Below, piece by piece: positions 4,890 to 41,290 of a DNA stretch of 41,666 bases. Positions within the stretch are counted from its first letter, which is position 1. Every line of letters starts with the position of its first letter. The notes under the pieces are model-generated. The model made no database searches, was not told the DNA's origin, and saw nothing but the letters and a program-made list of their open reading frames with translations. The stretch covers positions 1-41,666 of IMG/VR virus record IMGVR_UViG_2526164631_000048. One strand, written 5' to 3'. The stretch comes from a virus. Lineage: Duplodnaviria; Heunggongvirae; Uroviricota; Caudoviricetes. The position numbers and the translations under genes were made by a program.

Positions 4890-5296
4890 TATGCAAAATA
4901 GACCGTTGCCACGCCGTTATAGTGATCAAACGATACGGCGTTTACTTCATAGCTGGCAGGGAGCTTCGAGCCGAGAACATATCCGGGCCACGTTTTCCAT
5001 GGAATTTCTCTACTCTCACTACCCCCATATACCGTACATCCAAGTGAACCTACAGCCTCGTCAGAACGTTTGCCGCATGTTATGAAACCTATATTTTTCT
5101 TGCTGGTCTTAATGGCGATTGGGTGAACACTGGCTGATGCATTGGCAGCACGCTGTGACTGTTGGTTTGCGATATTCGCAGAGTTCGCAGCAGCTACAGC
5201 AGCCATGGTCGCGGCGGTAGATGCCACAATAACTGCTGAAGCCTGCGCCTGTTGGGTAATGGTCAGCAATGCCGCCACAAAAATCATCTTCTTCAC
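4886..5296 (-). CDS. Secreted/periplasmic hypothetical protein with Ala/Ser/Asn/Gln-rich linker
   Basis: GTG start with AAGGAG RBS; signal-peptide-like MKKMIFVAALLTITQQAQA; two Cys in C-terminal part. Confidence 0.45.
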   Translation of the reverse strand: MKKMIFVAALLTITQQAQASAVIVASTAATMAAVAAANSANIANQQSQRAANASASVHPIAIKTSKKNIGFITCGKRSDEAVGSLGCTVYGGSESREIPWKTWPGYVLGSKLPASYEVNAVSFDHYNGVATVYFAY

Positions 5297-5877
5297 TTGT
5301 CAGCTCCTTTGCGAATCTGTTCCGCCCATTCTTCAAGGGATTTCTCCGCATATTCACCGGACAGGCCATCAATCGGGTGCGGTTCATTAGCCAACTCTTC
5401 TTTCGCTGACAGAATCATGCGCGTAACGTCGAAAACTTCACGTAAAGACTTATTGATAAATCCGTGGTTGAAAGCAGCAGCAAGACGGCTTGCGGTATAG
5501 TTAATCCCCTCGTTGCGAGCCGCCGCACGAATTTCAGCCAAAAAAGCATCGGTGGCTGGGGTTTGCGGCATCTTTCCGTCTATTGCGCAGATATACGCAT
5601 CAGATAGCTCATCCTGCTCGCCATCAAACACGTAGCAACTCTGTGCGATAAATTTATTTAGCCCCGCATTCTCCGCCGCCAGCGCCGCGCACTTGGCCTC
5701 AAGGTTATCAATCGTGATTCCAGCAGAACGGCACTCCCGCAACGCCGTTTCTAGTTTTGATTCAAGTTCACCGAACTTACGCACCAGGTATTCAGCATCC
5801 GTTTCATTCACTTTCAGATCTTGCGGTACACATTTCCCGAGAAGAAACCATTCCATTTCGAAAACATTCATGCGCAT
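5293..5877 (-). CDS. Ead/Ea22-like protein (paralog)
   Basis: Shares the block CAALAAENAGLNKFIAQSCYVFDGEQDELSDAYICA with 4197..4889. Confidence 0.55.
   Translation of the reverse strand: MRMNVFEMEWFLLGKCVPQDLKVNETDAEYLVRKFGELESKLETALRECRSAGITIDNLEAKCAALAAENAGLNKFIAQSCYVFDGEQDELSDAYICAIDGKMPQTPATDAFLAEIRAAARNEGINYTASRLAAAFNHGFINKSLREVFDVTRMILSAKEELANEPHPIDGLSGEYAEKSLEEWAEQIRKGADK
5538..5697. repeat. Direct repeat copy B (~150 bp, near-identical to 4371..4518)
   Basis: Same sequence block as copy A, seen directly. Confidence 0.8.
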
Positions 5878-6416
5878 TTGCGTAACTCCGATAACTCGTT
5901 AAAACGTTCCATAAACATCCCGTAGGCATGGCCTGGTGACAGTGGAATAACTTTGAACATCTCTGTTGCCGGGATGCCTTCCAGTACAGGCCAGAAAGAG
6001 CCATCATCAAGCCCGAGATCGCGGCGTTCGGTTGCCAGCATAATGAGATCGGCATATTTCACTGGCGTGCTCATAACAGGAGGTAACCCGTATTTCTCAC
6101 GGATTACGGCGTCTATTTTTTCTTCCATCCGTTTATAGTCAGGAAGAAGGCGTTTCAGTGGCGCGGGAATGTCCTGGCAATACGCTTCTGTTGCATCATG
6201 CATTAACGCTTCAAAAGCAAATTCCTGCGGTACCAGCTGGCTGCAAAGCACCGCATGTTGGGCGACGCTGTAGAAGTGTGAAAGATGTCCTGCAAAGCGA
6301 CAGATATTTGAAAGGGAAACCGCGATATCGTTAATAACGATGTCATCTTTATTTATCTTGTCATAATAAAAATGTTTCCCGGAAAAAGTTTTAATAAATG
6401 ACATTTCGTTCTCCAC
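5868..6416 (-). CDS. HD-domain phosphohydrolase (YfdR-like)
   Basis: 182 aa; H..HD-type motifs (FAGH, MHDATE). Confidence 0.6.
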   Translation of the reverse strand: MENEMSFIKTFSGKHFYYDKINKDDIVINDIAVSLSNICRFAGHLSHFYSVAQHAVLCSQLVPQEFAFEALMHDATEAYCQDIPAPLKRLLPDYKRMEEKIDAVIREKYGLPPVMSTPVKYADLIMLATERRDLGLDDGSFWPVLEGIPATEMFKVIPLSPGHAYGMFMERFNELSELRKCA

Positions 6417-6532
6417 TTTATATGCGCTGCACCGCGTTGAATTCTGCTAAAAGGAAGCTCTCACCATCCGGTGATTATTGAGTTAATTACGTTTCCATAA
6501 ATGCCCCCGCAGGGGCATTAGCAGTAATGAAA

Positions 6533-16164: not shown

Positions 16165-16222
16165 TTTTCTGGAGGTCAATAATGCAGGGCGAAAAGCAGC
16201 AGCCATATTTTTTAACCCTGGT

Positions 16223-19768: not shown

Positions 19769-20263
19769 ATGGCTGGAACGGCGGGGCGTTCCGGGCGTCG
19801 CCCCAAGCCAACGGCGCGCAAGGCGCTGGCCGGAAACCCCGGCAAGCGAGCCCTGAATAAAGATGAACCTGTTTTTACGCCCATCAAAGGTGTTGAGCCA
19901 CCGGAGTGGTTCGCTGAAGAAGATCTCCCTCTCGCTACGATCATGTGGCAACTGACAACTAAAGAACTCTGCGGTCAGGGCCTGCTGTGCGTGACTGACC
20001 TTGCGGTGCTTGAGCGGTGGTGCGTGGCCTACGAGTTCTGGCGACGTGCCGTGAAAAATATTGCCAGACAGGGCAACACCATCACCGGTGCAATGGGCGG
20101 CAGGGTCAAAAATCCGGAGCTGACTGCCAAAAAAGAACAGGAGTCCGAGATGAGCAGTACGGGGGCAATGCTCGGACTCGACCCCAGCAGCCGCCAGCGT
20201 CTGATTGGCCTGGCGGGGAAGAAGAAAGCCACTAACCCGTTTCTGAAAATTATCGAATCATGA
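19769..20263 (+). CDS. Terminase small subunit (P27-like)
   Basis: AGGAG RBS 8 nt before ATG 19769; position before large terminase. Confidence 0.6.
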
Positions 20264-21992
20264 GCCGGAAATCTTACCCCAACGTAAATGCTGCCAATCA
20301 GTATGCCCGTGATGTCGTGCGCGGAAAGATTGTGGCCTGCCAGTTTGTGATTCAGGCCTGCCAGCGCCATCTTGATGACCTGATGGCGGAAAAAGTAAGT
20401 CGTTTCGTTACCGCTTCGACAAGGACCTGGCTGAACGGGCCGCCAAATTTATTCAGCTGTTGCCGCACACCAAGGGTGAGTGGGCATTCAAGAGGATGCC
20501 CATCACGCTGGAGCCGTGGCAGCTATTTGTGGTCTGCTGTGCGTTTGGCTGGGTCAATAAAGGGTCCCGGCTGCGCCGCTTCCGGGAGGTGTATACCGAA
20601 ATCCCCCGTAAGAACGGCAAATCGGCAATCTCTGCCGGTGTTGCCCTGTATTGTTTTGCCTGTGATAACGAGTTCGGCGCGGAAGTGTATTCCGGTGCCA
20701 CGACAGAGAAACAGGCGTGGGAAGTCTTTCGCCCGGCGCGACTGATGTGTAAACGCACCCCCATGCTGACGGAAGCGTTCGGGATTGAGGTTAACGCCTC
20801 AAACATGAACCGTCCGGAGGATGGCGCGCGGTTTGAACCGCTGATCGGCAACCCAGGTGATGGTTCATCACCCCACTGTGCCGTGGTTGATGAATATCAC
20901 GAGCATGCCACCGATGCGCTTTATACCACAATGCTTACCGGGATGGGGGCGCGACGTCAGCCACTGATGTGGGCCATCACCACCGCCGGGTACAACATTG
21001 AGGGGCCGTGCTACGACAAGCGGCGGGAAGTCATCGAGATGCTCAACGGCTCGGTGCCTAACGATGAACTGTTCGGGATCATCTATACCGTTGATGAAGG
21101 TGACGACTGGACCGACCCGCAGGTGCTGGAAAAAGCCAATCCAAATATTGGCGTGTCGGTTTATCGCGAATTTTTGTTAAGTCAGCAGCAGCGTGCGAAA
21201 AATAACGCCCGTCTGGCAAACGTCTTTAAAACAAAACACCTCAATATCTGGGTGTCGGCGCGTTCGGCGTATTTCAACCTGGTGAGCTGGCAGAGCTGCG
21301 AGGATAAATCACTGACCCTTGAGCAGTTCGAGGGGCAGCCGTGCATTCTGGCCTTTGACCTGGCGCGTAAGCTGGATATGAACAGCATGGCGCGACTTTA
21401 TACCCGCGAGATTGACGGTAAAACGCATTACTACAGTGTGGCCCCGCGCTTCTGGGTACCGTATGACACGGTGTACAGCGTCGAGAAAAATGAAGATAGA
21501 CGGACAGCCGAACGCTTTCAGAAATGGGTGGAAATGGGCGTCCTGACCGTTACCGATGGTGCAGAGGTGGATTATCGCTACATCCTCGAGGAGGCCAAAG
21601 CGGCGAACAAAATCAGCCCGGTCAGTGAGTCACCCATCGACCCCTTCGGGGCGACCGGGCTGTCACATGACCTTGCTGATGAAGATCTGAATCCCGTCAC
21701 TATCGTCCAGAACTTCGCCAATATGTCCGATCCGATGAAAGAGCTGGAAGCAGCGATTGAATCGGGACGCTTTCATCATGACGGCAATCCCATCATGACC
21801 TGGTGTATCGGCAATGTGGTCGGCAAAAACATGCCAGGTAACGATGATTTAGTGAAGCCCGTCAAGGAGCAGGCGGAAAACAAAATCGATGGTGCGGTTG
21901 CACTGATTATGACGATCGGTCGGGCAATGCTCAAAGAACCTGACGATTTCCTCTCATCTCTTGATCCGGACGATGATCTCTTAATTCTATGA
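20260..21992 (+). CDS. Terminase large subunit, reading frame interrupted at an A5 run near 20390..20394 (N-terminal ~44 aa in one frame, remainder in another)
   Basis: Protein-like N-terminus in the 20260 frame turns to junk after MAEK; the other frame opens at 20379 and continues as ...[27 protein letters not shown]... with DEYHEH motif; one extra A would fuse them. Confidence 0.7.
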
Positions 21993-37039: not shown

Positions 37040-37510
37040 ATGCATCGTATAGACACGAAAACCGCGCAGAAGGATAAGTTCGGCGCGGGTAAGAACGGTT
37101 TTACCCGTGGTAACCCCCAGACCGGCACGCCTGCCACCGTTCTGGATGATGACTACTTTGACATGTTGCAGGAAGAACTCTGCAGCGTGGTGGAGGCATC
37201 CGGTGCCAGCCTGGAGAAGGGGCGGCACGATCAGCTTCTTACCGCGCTTCGTGCGCTGCTGTTAAGCCGCAAGAATCCGTTTGGCGATATCAAATCGGAT
37301 GGCACTGTGCAAACGGCTCTCGAAAACCTGGGAATGACAGACATTCTGAATGATAAACAGGATAAAAATGATAATCTGACATCATTGTCGAGCTTAACAG
37401 GAATACCGGATGGGCTGGCATTTTTTACAGGTGCCGGAACAATGGATATGACAGCGCTGACTCAAAATGGCAGGGAAATTTTAAGTAAAAAAACGTATCG
37501 GAAACTCTAA
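37040..37510 (+). CDS. Tail fiber protein, conserved N-terminal part (possibly separated from its C-terminal part by a frame shift at an A7 run)
   Basis: N-terminal [32 protein letters not shown] motif typical of tail fibers; ends at stop 37508..37510 just after A7 (37487..37493). Confidence 0.6.
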
Positions 37511-37545
37511 AATATTTAACACTTGGGGATGGAACAGGAAGGCTT

Positions 37546-38139
37546 TTGGGGGTTCAGGCATTTGGATCATCTGGGACTTATATCAAATCACCTGGTGTAA
37601 CGAAAATTATAGTGGAAGCCGTTGGCGGAGGTGGTGCCAGTGGTAATTTGTCGGCAACTGCATCTGGTAACTGTGGTGTAAGTGCTGCCGGTTCCAACGG
37701 GGCATATGCTAAAGCATTTTTTTATCAGTCTATACCTGAATCCGTGCAAGTAACTATTGGAAGCGGTGGTGTAGCAGGAACAGGACCAGGAGGCTCTGGA
37801 GGTGACGGCGGGAATACAAGCTTTGGTGATTTGCTTGTATGTCCGGGAGGAAGGGGATCAACTCAAGTTCAGCAGGTACCTCCATTTTCAGGGGGAAGTG
37901 CAACAGAAGCACCAATTCCTACAGGGCAAGGGATTCTGTTCCATTCAGTTTCACGATCAAATTTATGTGGGGCACTTGGACTTGGTGATGATCAGGCGAT
38001 TGGCGTTGAAAGTATAACCACTACTATGCTTGGGATATACGGTATTGGCGGGACAGGTAAATACAATAAGGCGTCATCAGGTCCAGCGACAGGAAATAAT
38101 GGAAATCAGGGATATATTCTTGTGTGGGAGTATCAGTAA
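37546..38139 (+). CDS. Gly-rich tail fiber distal/receptor-binding part (frame open from 37489; TTG start at 37546 after AGGAAGG)
   Basis: 197 aa Gly/Ser-rich; lower GC; in a different frame that overlaps the end of 37040..37510. Confidence 0.5.
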   Translation: MGVQAFGSSGTYIKSPGVTKIIVEAVGGGGASGNLSATASGNCGVSAAGSNGAYAKAFFYQSIPESVQVTIGSGGVAGTGPGGSGGDGGNTSFGDLLVCPGGRGSTQVQQVPPFSGGSATEAPIPTGQGILFHSVSRSNLCGALGLGDDQAIGVESITTTMLGIYGIGGTGKYNKASSGPATGNNGNQGYILVWEYQ

Positions 38140-38140
38140 T

Positions 38141-38345
38141 GAGCGATATTTATGCAGTCGTACAAAATGGTGTCGTTACAAATCTTGTTGTATGGGATGG
38201 TAAGTCAGAGTTTAAGTCAGAAAAAGCGGATATAGTTAAATGTGTTGGAGATGTTGGTATTGGCTGGTCATATGACGGTAAAAAATTCATCAAGCCTTCC
38301 TTAAAACCAGATGTAGTTACTCCTCAAGATGAGTTAGTCAGTTAA
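38141..38345 (+). CDS. Small protein after tail fiber (possible fiber assembly chaperone, 68 aa)
   Basis: ATG directly after fiber stop; position typical of Tfa but much shorter. Confidence 0.35.
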
Positions 38346-38756
38346 TTGCTAGTACGCTGGAGATTTTGATAATTTCCAGCGCATTTTTCCTTCTGCAGTA
38401 ATGGATGAAATACCGCGAGTATAATGTTTTTATGCATATGAACCGTTTAAACCAGAGGAATCCTGACGAAATTGGTTATTGCGCCGAGAGTTGTCGGAGG
38501 GGGTGATATAGGTTATCTAATGGAGTAATCATTTTAACATTAATCAGTTTCCCCATGACATCCTCTAAACCCTATATAAACGATTTCCTGCTACTGGCAT
38601 TCAAACGAAATAATTTGAAAGCAATTTAAAGAGTTATTTGTCTAATGTTGGAAGCCGCAGCCACGTCGTATGCAAGAACGTGCTGCGGCTGGCTGGCGAA
38701 CTTTCGATAGTGCGAGTATTGAATGATTTCCAGCCGTTACCGATTTTACGTGTTAA

Positions 38757-39005
38757 TTAGTGAACAAACCACTCGTCAGCAGATTCCCAGGTATCTTTCA
38801 GAGTCTCCTGAACAAAAGTTTTTGCAGAATCCTTATCTGCGGTGCGTGTAACAGAAAGGCCATCGTTGCTGGTGGCTTTTACGATCACCTCTACATCGTC
38901 ATAACGTTTACTGATGCGTCGGGTTAATTCTTCCTTTAACGCATCCACAGCACCGGTTGGCATTTTAGTCATTTTTTCTTTGGCTATGCAGATTTCAATA
39001 CGCAT
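38757..39005 (-). CDS. dinI: DinI-family protein
   Basis: 82 aa; MRIEICIAK...TWESADEWF matches DinI; GAGGGA RBS; two LexA boxes upstream. Confidence 0.8.
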
Positions 39006-39018
39006 AAAAGTCCCTCTA

Positions 39019-39066
39019 TACTGTGTTTGTATACAGTATTATTTTTAACTGTATGGATAAACAGTG
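39019..39066 (-). promoter_or_regulatory. Two tandem LexA (SOS) boxes upstream of the dinI-like gene
   Basis: taCTGTgtttgtatACAGta (39019..39038) and aaCTGTatggataaACAGtg (39047..39066), both CTGT-N8-ACAG. Confidence 0.7.
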
Positions 39067-40164
39067 TCAAGAGGTCTTATTTCTGCTCCTTTGGAGCTCT
39101 TCAAAACGATTATGTAAAGATTTCGGATACAGTTCGGTATATACCTGCCATAGCACGTTTAATGAACGATGCCCTGTAACCTGGGCGACTTCCTCAATAC
39201 TAAAACCAGCCTCAAATAAGCGACTTGCCCCTTCTCTACGCAAATCATGGTATCGCAGATCTTTAATACCTAATTTGCTTCTTACCCTCTGGAATCCCGC
39301 AGTAACAGAAGTGCTGTTATATGGAAAAATGAATTCTGATTTTTTGGGTTGTCGTTGGACGATATCCCAGGCTTCCCCAAGCAAGGCTACTTTCATATGG
39401 TTGCCTTCCTTTTTACGTGGATCTTTCCTGTCTCTTACGAGTATGGATTTTTGTTCCTGATCGAGATCCTCCCATCGTAATCGGCATACTTCACCGATTC
39501 GCATACATGACCACACAGAAAATTTGAGGATATCAACGAACGGAATTTTTGAGCATTTATGTGTAGATCGTTGTTGAAGACCTTCAATGAGCATGTCCAG
39601 TTCATCAGATGCCGGTCTACGATTACGACGATTTGATTTACCAATTAACCCAAGTTTAAGTAGATATGGACGAGCGGCTTTTGCTGGGTTTGATGTGTAA
39701 TTAATTCCATATACAGGTTTGGCAGCATCCAGAACACTGCCAAGATAACTAACATCGTGGCTAACTGTAGCTGGACCTGCACCAGCGTTGTTTCTTAGCC
39801 TGCAATGTTCAATTACGTCATTTTCTGTCAGTTCAGATAGTTTGATCGCGGAGATGTCACTATCCATAAGCAGTTCCAGCACATATCTTTTAGTACGGCC
39901 TGCTTTACCTCCGGCATTTGGGTCATTTAAATATTTGTGTAGTAAGTCACGGACTGTAAGTCCGTCAACTGCATTTGATGATGGAATGCCATATAGATCT
40001 AATTCCATCACTTTCTGTGTGCCCCATGTTTTGGCATGAGCATGTTTAGGGAATGTTTTGCTTTCCCTGTAAGTGATAACACCTTTTTCTTTGATAATCA
40101 CATTACAGCGATAGCGTGGTGTGCCATCGGATTTTAGTCGTTTCTCTATGTTATAGTACGCCAT
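39067..40164 (-). CDS. int: Tyrosine recombinase integrase (dusA-specific integrase type)
   Basis: 365 aa; R...H..LR..Y catalytic signature (HDLRREGAS, LWQVY); divergent from and adjacent to dusA. Confidence 0.85.
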   Translation of the reverse strand: MAYYNIEKRLKSDGTPRYRCNVIIKEKGVITYRESKTFPKHAHAKTWGTQKVMELDLYGIPSSNAVDGLTVRDLLHKYLNDPNAGGKAGRTKRYVLELLMDSDISAIKLSELTENDVIEHCRLRNNAGAGPATVSHDVSYLGSVLDAAKPVYGINYTSNPAKAARPYLLKLGLIGKSNRRNRRPASDELDMLIEGLQQRSTHKCSKIPFVDILKFSVWSCMRIGEVCRLRWEDLDQEQKSILVRDRKDPRKKEGNHMKVALLGEAWDIVQRQPKKSEFIFPYNSTSVTAGFQRVRSKLGIKDLRYHDLRREGASRLFEAGFSIEEVAQVTGHRSLNVLWQVYTELYPKSLHNRFEELQRSRNKTS

Positions 40165-40183
40165 TACACGACCTCGTTATTTC

Positions 40184-40220
40184 GGGTTCCCATAAAACGT
40201 GGGAACCTGTGCGGGAACCT
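40184..40220. repeat. GGGAACC motif cluster: inverted repeat GGGTTCCCA-N7-TGGGAACC plus a direct repeat 12 bp on
   Basis: Seen directly between int start and dusA start. Confidence 0.5.
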
Positions 40221-40252
40221 AACGCGAGAAAAATAGCCTGAAATGTTCAAAA

Positions 40253-41290
40253 ATGCACGATAATCATGAAACACAAAAAATTAATCAAACCAGCGTGATG
40301 CCTGAAAAAACTGGTGTTTACTGGAATTCTCGGTTTAGCATTGCTCCTATGCTCGACTGGACGGACAGACATTGCCGCTATTTCTTGCGTCTGCTTTCCC
40401 GCAATACGTTGCTGTATACCGAAATGGTGACCACAGGGGCGATTATTCACGGTAAAGGTGATTATCTGGCGTACAGTGAAGAAGAACATCCGGTAGCGTT
40501 GCAACTGGGCGGTAGCGATCCGGCGGCGCTGGCGCAGTGTGCAAAGCTGGCAGAAGCGCGCGGATATGATGAGATCAACCTGAATGTCGGCTGCCCGTCT
40601 GACCGGGTGCAGAACGGCATGTTTGGTGCGTGTCTGATGGGTAATGCGCAGCTGGTTGCCGACTGTGTGAAAGCGATGCGCGATGTGGTGTCGATTCCAG
40701 TGACGGTGAAAACGCGTATTGGCATCGATGACCAGGACAGCTATGAATTTCTCTGCGATTTCATCAACACTGTTTCCGGCAAAGGCGAGTGTGAGATGTT
40801 TATCATCCACGCACGTAAAGCCTGGCTTTCGGGGTTAAGCCCGAAAGAAAACCGTGAAATCCCGCCGCTCGATTATCCGCGTGTGTATCAACTGAAGCGT
40901 GACTTTCCGCATCTGACAATGTCGATTAACGGTGGTATCAAGTCGCTGGAAGAGGCCAAAGCACACCTGCAACATATGGATGGCGTGATGGTCGGGCGCG
41001 AGGCGTATCAGAATCCGGGTATTCTGGCGGCAGTAGACCGGGAGATCTTTGGTTCCTCGGATACCGATGCCGATCCGGTGGCGGTAGTGCGCGCCATGTA
41101 TCCGTACATTGAGCGTGAACTCAGCCAGGGGACGTATCTCGGCCATATTACCCGGCATATGTTGGGCTTGTTCCAGGGTATTCCTGGCGCGCGGCAGTGG
41201 CGGCGTTATTTAAGTGAAAATGCCCATAAAGCGGGTGCAGACATTAATGTGCTGGAACACGCGCTCAAACTGGTGGCGGATAAGCGTTAA
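40253..41290 (+). CDS. dusA: tRNA-dihydrouridine synthase A (DusA); start may be ATG 40298 (MPEKTG...)
   Basis: Flavin-dependent Dus motifs ([23 protein letters not shown]); 5' end lies at the prophage junction. Confidence 0.85.

Follow-up and report, generated by a model that had tools for sequence, protein, structure and literature searches.

A tail fibre gene split at a run of seven A in an Escherichia coli prophage probably reflects a one-base homopolymer under-call in an old draft assembly

We asked why the tail fibre gene of an Escherichia coli prophage is carried in two reading frames. The gene lies in a stretch of 41,666 nucleotides, all of which was analysed and is referred to here as the window (IMG/VR record IMGVR_UViG_2526164631_000048; Table 1). 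The upstream frame starts with an ATG at 37040, three bases past the stop of a Mu gp48-like gene. It crosses a run of seven A (junction sequence TTTTAAGT AAAAAAA CGTATCGG, with the immediate context AAGT-AAAAAAA-CG), reads five out-of-frame codons (TYRKL) and ends at a TAA at 37508-37510, 15 nt past the run. In the -1 frame, the codon at 37486-37488 is a TAA, past which the frame stays open from 37489 to a stop at 38137-38139. Its earliest start codon is a TTG at 37546, and the AGGAAGG at 37537-37543 ends 2 nt before it, a spacing too close for a good ribosome-binding site. The first-pass annotation had reported the A7 run, the stop that follows it and the second frame open from 37489, and we confirmed all three in the sequence. 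It had also predicted that one extra A would fuse the two frames into a fibre of about 365 aa. Adding one A in silico gave a 366-aa ORF, which is exactly the protein of the relatives with A8. Runs of seven are not rare in this DNA: there are eight A7 and seven T7 runs within the window.

Table 1. Features of the window that bear on the split fibre gene, and their neighbours. Runs are given as assembled; changes are written as finished genome > window.
Feature	Position	Strand	Remarks
T7>T6	16207		truncates 81-aa gene
T6 run	16208..16213	+	T7 in finished genomes; gene start 16182
A6>A5	20389		splits terminase large subunit
A5 run	20390..20394	+	A6 in both finished genomes; splits terminase large subunit
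Baseplate J (Mu gp47-like) and Mu gp48-like (YmfQ) genes	35403..37036	+	PF04865 E 5.9e-52, PF10076 E 9.4e-27
Tail fibre gene	37040..38139	+	single 366-aa ORF in relatives; two frames in this assembly
ORF1	37040..37510	+	156 aa, fibre N-terminal part (StfP-like, Mu S-like)
Mosaic junction zone	37265..37400	+	start of GC drop and left ends of distal cassette; from similarity breakpoints and GC profile
A8>A7	37486		splits tail fibre
A7 run	37487..37493	+	site of one-base shortening; A8 in every copy read outside the DEC drafts
-1 frame continuation	37489..38139	+	216 codons
Small 68-aa ORF	38139..38345	+	phrog_14370, unknown function, E 5e-26
DinI-like gene	38757-39005	-	prophage right end (38757-41290)
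Tyrosine integrase	39067-40164	-	prophage right end
dusA	40253-41290		prophage right end

We assessed whether the two frames belong to one protein. The family phrog_863 aligned to residues 1-365 of the fused protein in a single stretch across the junction (E 6.8e-70), and a match of both adjacent frames to one tail-fibre family in one alignment is beyond chance. Tail-fibre PHROGs matched residues 1-112 of ORF1 (phrog_1396, E 1.8e-51), which also had a weak match (5yvq/8ju3, E about 0.02) to the N-terminal region of fibre S from phage Mu. The -1 frame matched the Pfam family PF21722 (Gly_rich_2) with 32.8 bits against a cut-off of 24.3 (E 9.2e-08), and no family was matched in NCBIfam. An AlphaFold2 model of the distal 216 residues, made with 84 homologues, was confident (pLDDT 91, pTM 0.86), and the predicted domain has the TNF-like plus Gly-rich fold of cyanophage Pam3 gp24. 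The baseplate genes lie directly upstream and establish where in the tail module the fibre gene sits.

We compared the window with finished genomes. It is identical to the locus in the E. coli DEC12A draft (exact match at window position 34040) and is therefore part of that draft, AIHA01000044.1. In a megablast search of 5,426 complete E. coli genomes, FDAARGOS_1059 and O111:H2 strain 12A proved to carry this prophage at dusA, and both have A8 and an intact 366-aa ORF. Over the full 41,666 bp, the window and the finished genome of strain 12A (NZ_CP077479.1) differ by 0 substitutions and at three places. All three differences are 1-nt deletions in the window inside A/T homopolymers, and FDAARGOS_1059 has the same three longer runs along with six substitutions relative to the window. 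The three ORFs that are broken in the window, all intact in finished strain 12A, are the fibre, an 81-aa hypothetical gene that is cut to 14 codons by the T6 shortening, and the 577-aa terminase large subunit (20260-21992), which the A5 run divides into ORFs of 161 aa and 510 aa. The terminase is the other frame break at a poly-A run that the first-pass annotation had counted in the window, and the comparison bears this out. To trace the A5 break in DEC12B, C and D, we also considered a terminase call of 498 aa. It was uninformative because the same call is made in assemblies with an intact 577-aa ORF. At two SNP positions, DEC12A agrees with strain 12A, whereas DEC12B, C and D differ at one of them and DEC12B and D also at the other. 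From the name, the serotype, the 0 substitutions over 41.7 kb and these two positions, we infer that strain 12A is DEC12A.

We examined the length of the run in other copies of the gene. The 12 complete E. coli genomes that contain window positions 37400-37600 all match with 202 bases against the 201 of the window. Eleven of these were read, and each has A8 and a continuous ORF of 366-419 aa; the twelfth, with the same extra base, was recorded as a match only. A pattern scan for the fibre site that allowed A6 to A10 recovered 15 IMG/VR contigs and four metagenome contigs (two of the four cut by the contig end), all with A8 and with the frame open across the site. The same scan of the GTDB representative genomes, over A6 to A10, gave no match. 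The copies read from other projects thus number 30 (11, 15 and 4), and every one has A8 and a single frame across the site. This is the comparison with intact fibres of related prophages that the first-pass annotation had proposed, and its outcome is uniform; none of the 30 pairs a true A7 with the two parts encoded as separate genes. The docking part and the distal domain, split at A7 in the window, form a single polypeptide in these 30 copies as well as in about 136 of the 150 best distant homologues.

The shorter run has a narrow distribution. In the protein collection, the exact truncated 156-aa protein is present on only four contigs, from the drafts of DEC12A, B, C and D. The other truncated form is an allele (V34D, G133R) with the same ...SKKTYRKL end, and it is present only in DEC14B, from the same sequencing project. 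The 366-aa forms of the fibre are on hundreds of contigs in this collection, 365 of which carry a single variant. A7 is also given by Logan re-assemblies of SRR124115 and SRR125865, two early SRA runs; the contig from SRR124115 is common to four samples. The shorter run is therefore carried by the majority of reads in those runs and is not a random slip of the consensus. One Logan contig from an early SRA run begins 4 nt before the A run, and reads of mixed run length may have broken the graph at this point. Taken over all sources, A7 is confined to the data of one project (the DEC12A-D and DEC14B drafts and the two SRA runs), where it is present on two alleles.

We therefore consider, with a probability of about 0.88, that the fibre frame break is an assembly artefact in which A8 was under-called by one base in the DEC12A draft. 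The first-pass annotation had leaned toward homopolymer sequencing error, and the comparison with finished strain 12A, with one-base homopolymer shortenings as the only differences, is what such error would leave. A systematic A/T under-call is the simplest account given the 0 substitutions, the restriction of the differences to one-base homopolymer shortenings, the restoration of the ORFs, and the presence of A7 in one project on two alleles. The draft AIHA01000044.1 would have called a run of eight A as seven, and the real gene would encode one tail fibre of 366 aa, in a dusA-integrated prophage whose contractile tail is Mu-like. Long homopolymers are prone to under-calling in pyrosequencing, from which the missing base presumably stems. 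A sister project of the same year and sequencing centre relied solely on 454 Titanium paired-end reads, assembled with Celera (PMC3491183). As this old draft has A/T runs of 6-8 that are one base short, its homopolymer frame breaks in the fibre, the terminase and the 81-aa gene should be read as artefacts, and the prophage is probably intact. The frame break is no biological feature; the gene behind it is an ordinary tail fibre of a known kind. The main value of the case is as a caution about frame breaks at homopolymers in old draft assemblies.

Other explanations take the seven A at face value. An A7 common to four or five separate drafts fits a systematic platform bias and would also fit a real allele in the laboratory stocks, but it is unlikely that the DEC stocks really carry it. 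Genuine decay would mean that a real one-base deletion from A8 inactivated the fibre of the DEC12 lineage while erosion of the prophage also hit the terminase. This would agree with an A7 common to four DEC12 isolates that differ mutually by SNPs, with its reproduction when the reads are re-assembled and with the breakage of two essential virion genes in the window. However, each of the three runs is one base longer in finished strain 12A, and it is improbable that three real slippage deletions would arise without any substitution over 41.7 kb. The same truncation on a different allele is seen only in DEC14B, from the same project, and A7 is found in 0 of the 30 other copies. Given the zero substitutions, the decayed host-range machinery that had been suggested for this locus is a very unlikely explanation. 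Phase variation, suggested alongside it, would make the A tract a contingency locus that sets the fibre on (A8) or off (A7) by slipped-strand mispairing. The 30 independent copies from other projects are uniformly A8, with no A7 and no A9, and the want of tract-length polymorphism outside one project counts against such switching, even though the homopolymer sits inside a host-range gene, A7 is present on two alleles and one read-graph contig starts beside the run. The tract is also short for an E. coli contingency locus, and the window's other two differences fall at shorter runs and in unrelated genes, which indicates a technical cause. We regard phase variation as highly improbable. It is very unlikely, too, that A7 is real in DEC12 and DEC14B and that the A8 of the portable cassette described below is a hot spot where recurrent slippage turns the host-range fibre off, with low-level slippage possibly restoring the full-length protein. 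If this were true, it would be a phase-variable prophage tail fibre in E. coli.

The A7 run could also be correct if the distal part were a separate gene starting at TTG 37546, as the first-pass annotation had offered as an alternative, or if the run were recoded by programmed -1 frameshifting or transcriptional slippage. The separate gene draws on the AGGAAGG ahead of the TTG, but it was rejected on the spacing of 2 nt and the single-frame relatives. A runs in lysine codons are shifty in E. coli, and this one has an AGGGA motif 10 nt upstream, an arrangement reminiscent of dnaX. The 0-frame sequence AGU AAA AAA ACG nevertheless gives the heptamer U_AAA_AAA and not the canonical X_XXY_YYZ. A downstream stimulatory RNA structure was looked for and none was found (MFE -11.9 against a shuffle mean of -14.7, z +1.07, with 172 of 200 shuffles folding at least as well), and the frameshift candidate that the window does have, T_TTT_TTT at 29326-29332, looks quite different. 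A programmed frameshift at A7 was rejected for want of a canonical heptamer, a downstream structure and two-frame conservation in relatives. Both proposals run against the 30 other copies, which encode one frame across the site, and against the distant homologues: in about 136 of the best 150, a longer protein ends in the Gly-rich domain. We judge both to be extremely improbable, and retain the under-called A8 as the probable explanation of the frame break.

The drop in GC content that the first-pass annotation had noted in the Gly-rich distal part is real biology and finds its explanation in mosaicism. GC is 0.56-0.62 over 36450-37349 against 0.41-0.50 over 37350-38249, falling from about 0.58. 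Similarity to other prophages has left breakpoints at 37265, 37318, 37350 and 37400, and matches to the N-terminal part only stop at about 37329-37345. The N-terminal ~100 codons have 95-98% DNA identity to stfP-type genes with other distal parts in ~1,800 of the 5,426 complete E. coli genomes. The distal cassette, which runs from ~37265-37400 to 38297/38319 and includes the A8 run and most of the small ORF, is 96-99% identical in other E. coli prophages, where it is joined in frame to three other N-terminal anchors, starting MGSITLMAKNDFK..., MGDNTLMATNNFK... and MNRSDAPKK.... Four anchor types in total carry the cassette, with different baseplate neighbours (YmfQ/Mu gp48-like or DUF2612), and several distal cassettes adjoin an O-antigen-type acyltransferase gene. 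A tblastn search of the INPHARED isolated phages with the distal domain (low-complexity filter on) did not find the cassette and gave only a 53-residue motif match in a Pseudomonas phage. The glycine-rich cassette, with its predicted Pam3 gp24 fold, moves among no fewer than four types of fibre anchor in E. coli prophages.

In Pam3, the helical domain at the N-terminus attaches to the baseplate, the TNF-like domain and the glycine-rich one are described as recognising the host receptor, and the fibre gene is followed by one for a chaperone (PMC9608196). By analogy, the fibre described here would be short and modular, with a docking part and a receptor-binding tip. The N-terminal ~100 residues, a conserved part common to other fibres, presumably serve for attachment to the baseplate, and recombination swaps modules at a short conserved linker. 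The C-terminal ~200 residues are predicted to fold into a TNF-like and glycine-rich domain resembling the one with which Pam3 gp24 recognises the host receptor, and the likeness suggests a trimeric fibre with a receptor-binding role. Downstream, the ATG of the small 68-aa ORF shares one base with the fibre stop. The ORF follows the fibre in the annotation of all relatives and travels with the distal cassette. It is a candidate fibre-assembly factor or minimal fibre chaperone, although similarity to Tfa chaperones was not detectable. Through the overlap this ORF is translationally coupled to the fibre, and its C-terminus varies (59 aa against 68 aa) where the cassette ends.

The annotation of the fibre in public genomes deserves comment. 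The intact fibre of 366-388 aa has no gene annotation in RefSeq complete genomes (loci L001 3141-4241, L002, L005, L016, L020 and L021). RefSeq marks the first 99-115 fibre codons as an incomplete pseudogene, named 'stfP' if the anchor is StfP-like and 'hypothetical protein' otherwise. The glycine-rich part is unannotated or is called from an internal ATG as a protein of 268 aa (loci L003 and L017).

Several neighbouring elements were also recorded. The T_TTT_TTT heptamer lies in frame in the tail assembly chaperone gene (29075-29398), whose -1 frame continues without a stop to about 29490, where the tape-measure gene begins (29483). Judged from the sequence, it is a textbook candidate for the programmed -1 frameshift (G/GT type) that is conserved among tail chaperones, and in contrast to the fibre break we take it to be real. 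The prophage is dusA-integrating, and in the finished genome a displaced 5' fragment of dusA is annotated at 42209-42313 of locus L014, at the far end of the prophage and just outside the window. At 4908-6471 of locus L007, in the DEC12C draft, an IS66-family transposase gene stands in place of the DEC12A integrase. Only 43 aa remain there of the DinI-like gene, inside which, at L007 position 4877, similarity to strain 12A stops. An Rfam scan of 36800-39100 returned only a sub-threshold match to the Shigella sRNA CssrB (38632-38687; 22 bits against a gathering threshold of 76, E 0.09), which is probably due to chance.

We compared the locus to known systems. The three shortenings resemble homopolymer under-calls of 454 drafts in being single-base, deletion-only, located in A/T runs of 6-8, reproduced within a project and absent from finished genomes; the platform evidence here comes from the sister project of the same centre only. 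Cyanophage Pam3 gp24 (PDB 7YPX) is alike in the predicted TNF-like and glycine-rich distal domain, but at its N-terminus the fibre here resembles StfP or Mu S and not Pam3, and the downstream ORF has 68 aa against 162 aa for gp25. Mycobacteriophage Bxb1 gp33, the 'tail wing brush' (PDB 9D93), is alike in fold only and is a siphovirus accessory fibre. The glycine-rich domain of ALK/LTK (7LIR, 7LS0) likewise shares the fold only, ALK being a metazoan receptor ectodomain. The E. coli e14 and Mu-type fibres (StfP, Mu S) have another distal cassette, and the locus here is without their invertible segment or invertase, whereas the position of the gene, after homologues of Mu gp47 and gp48, is the same.
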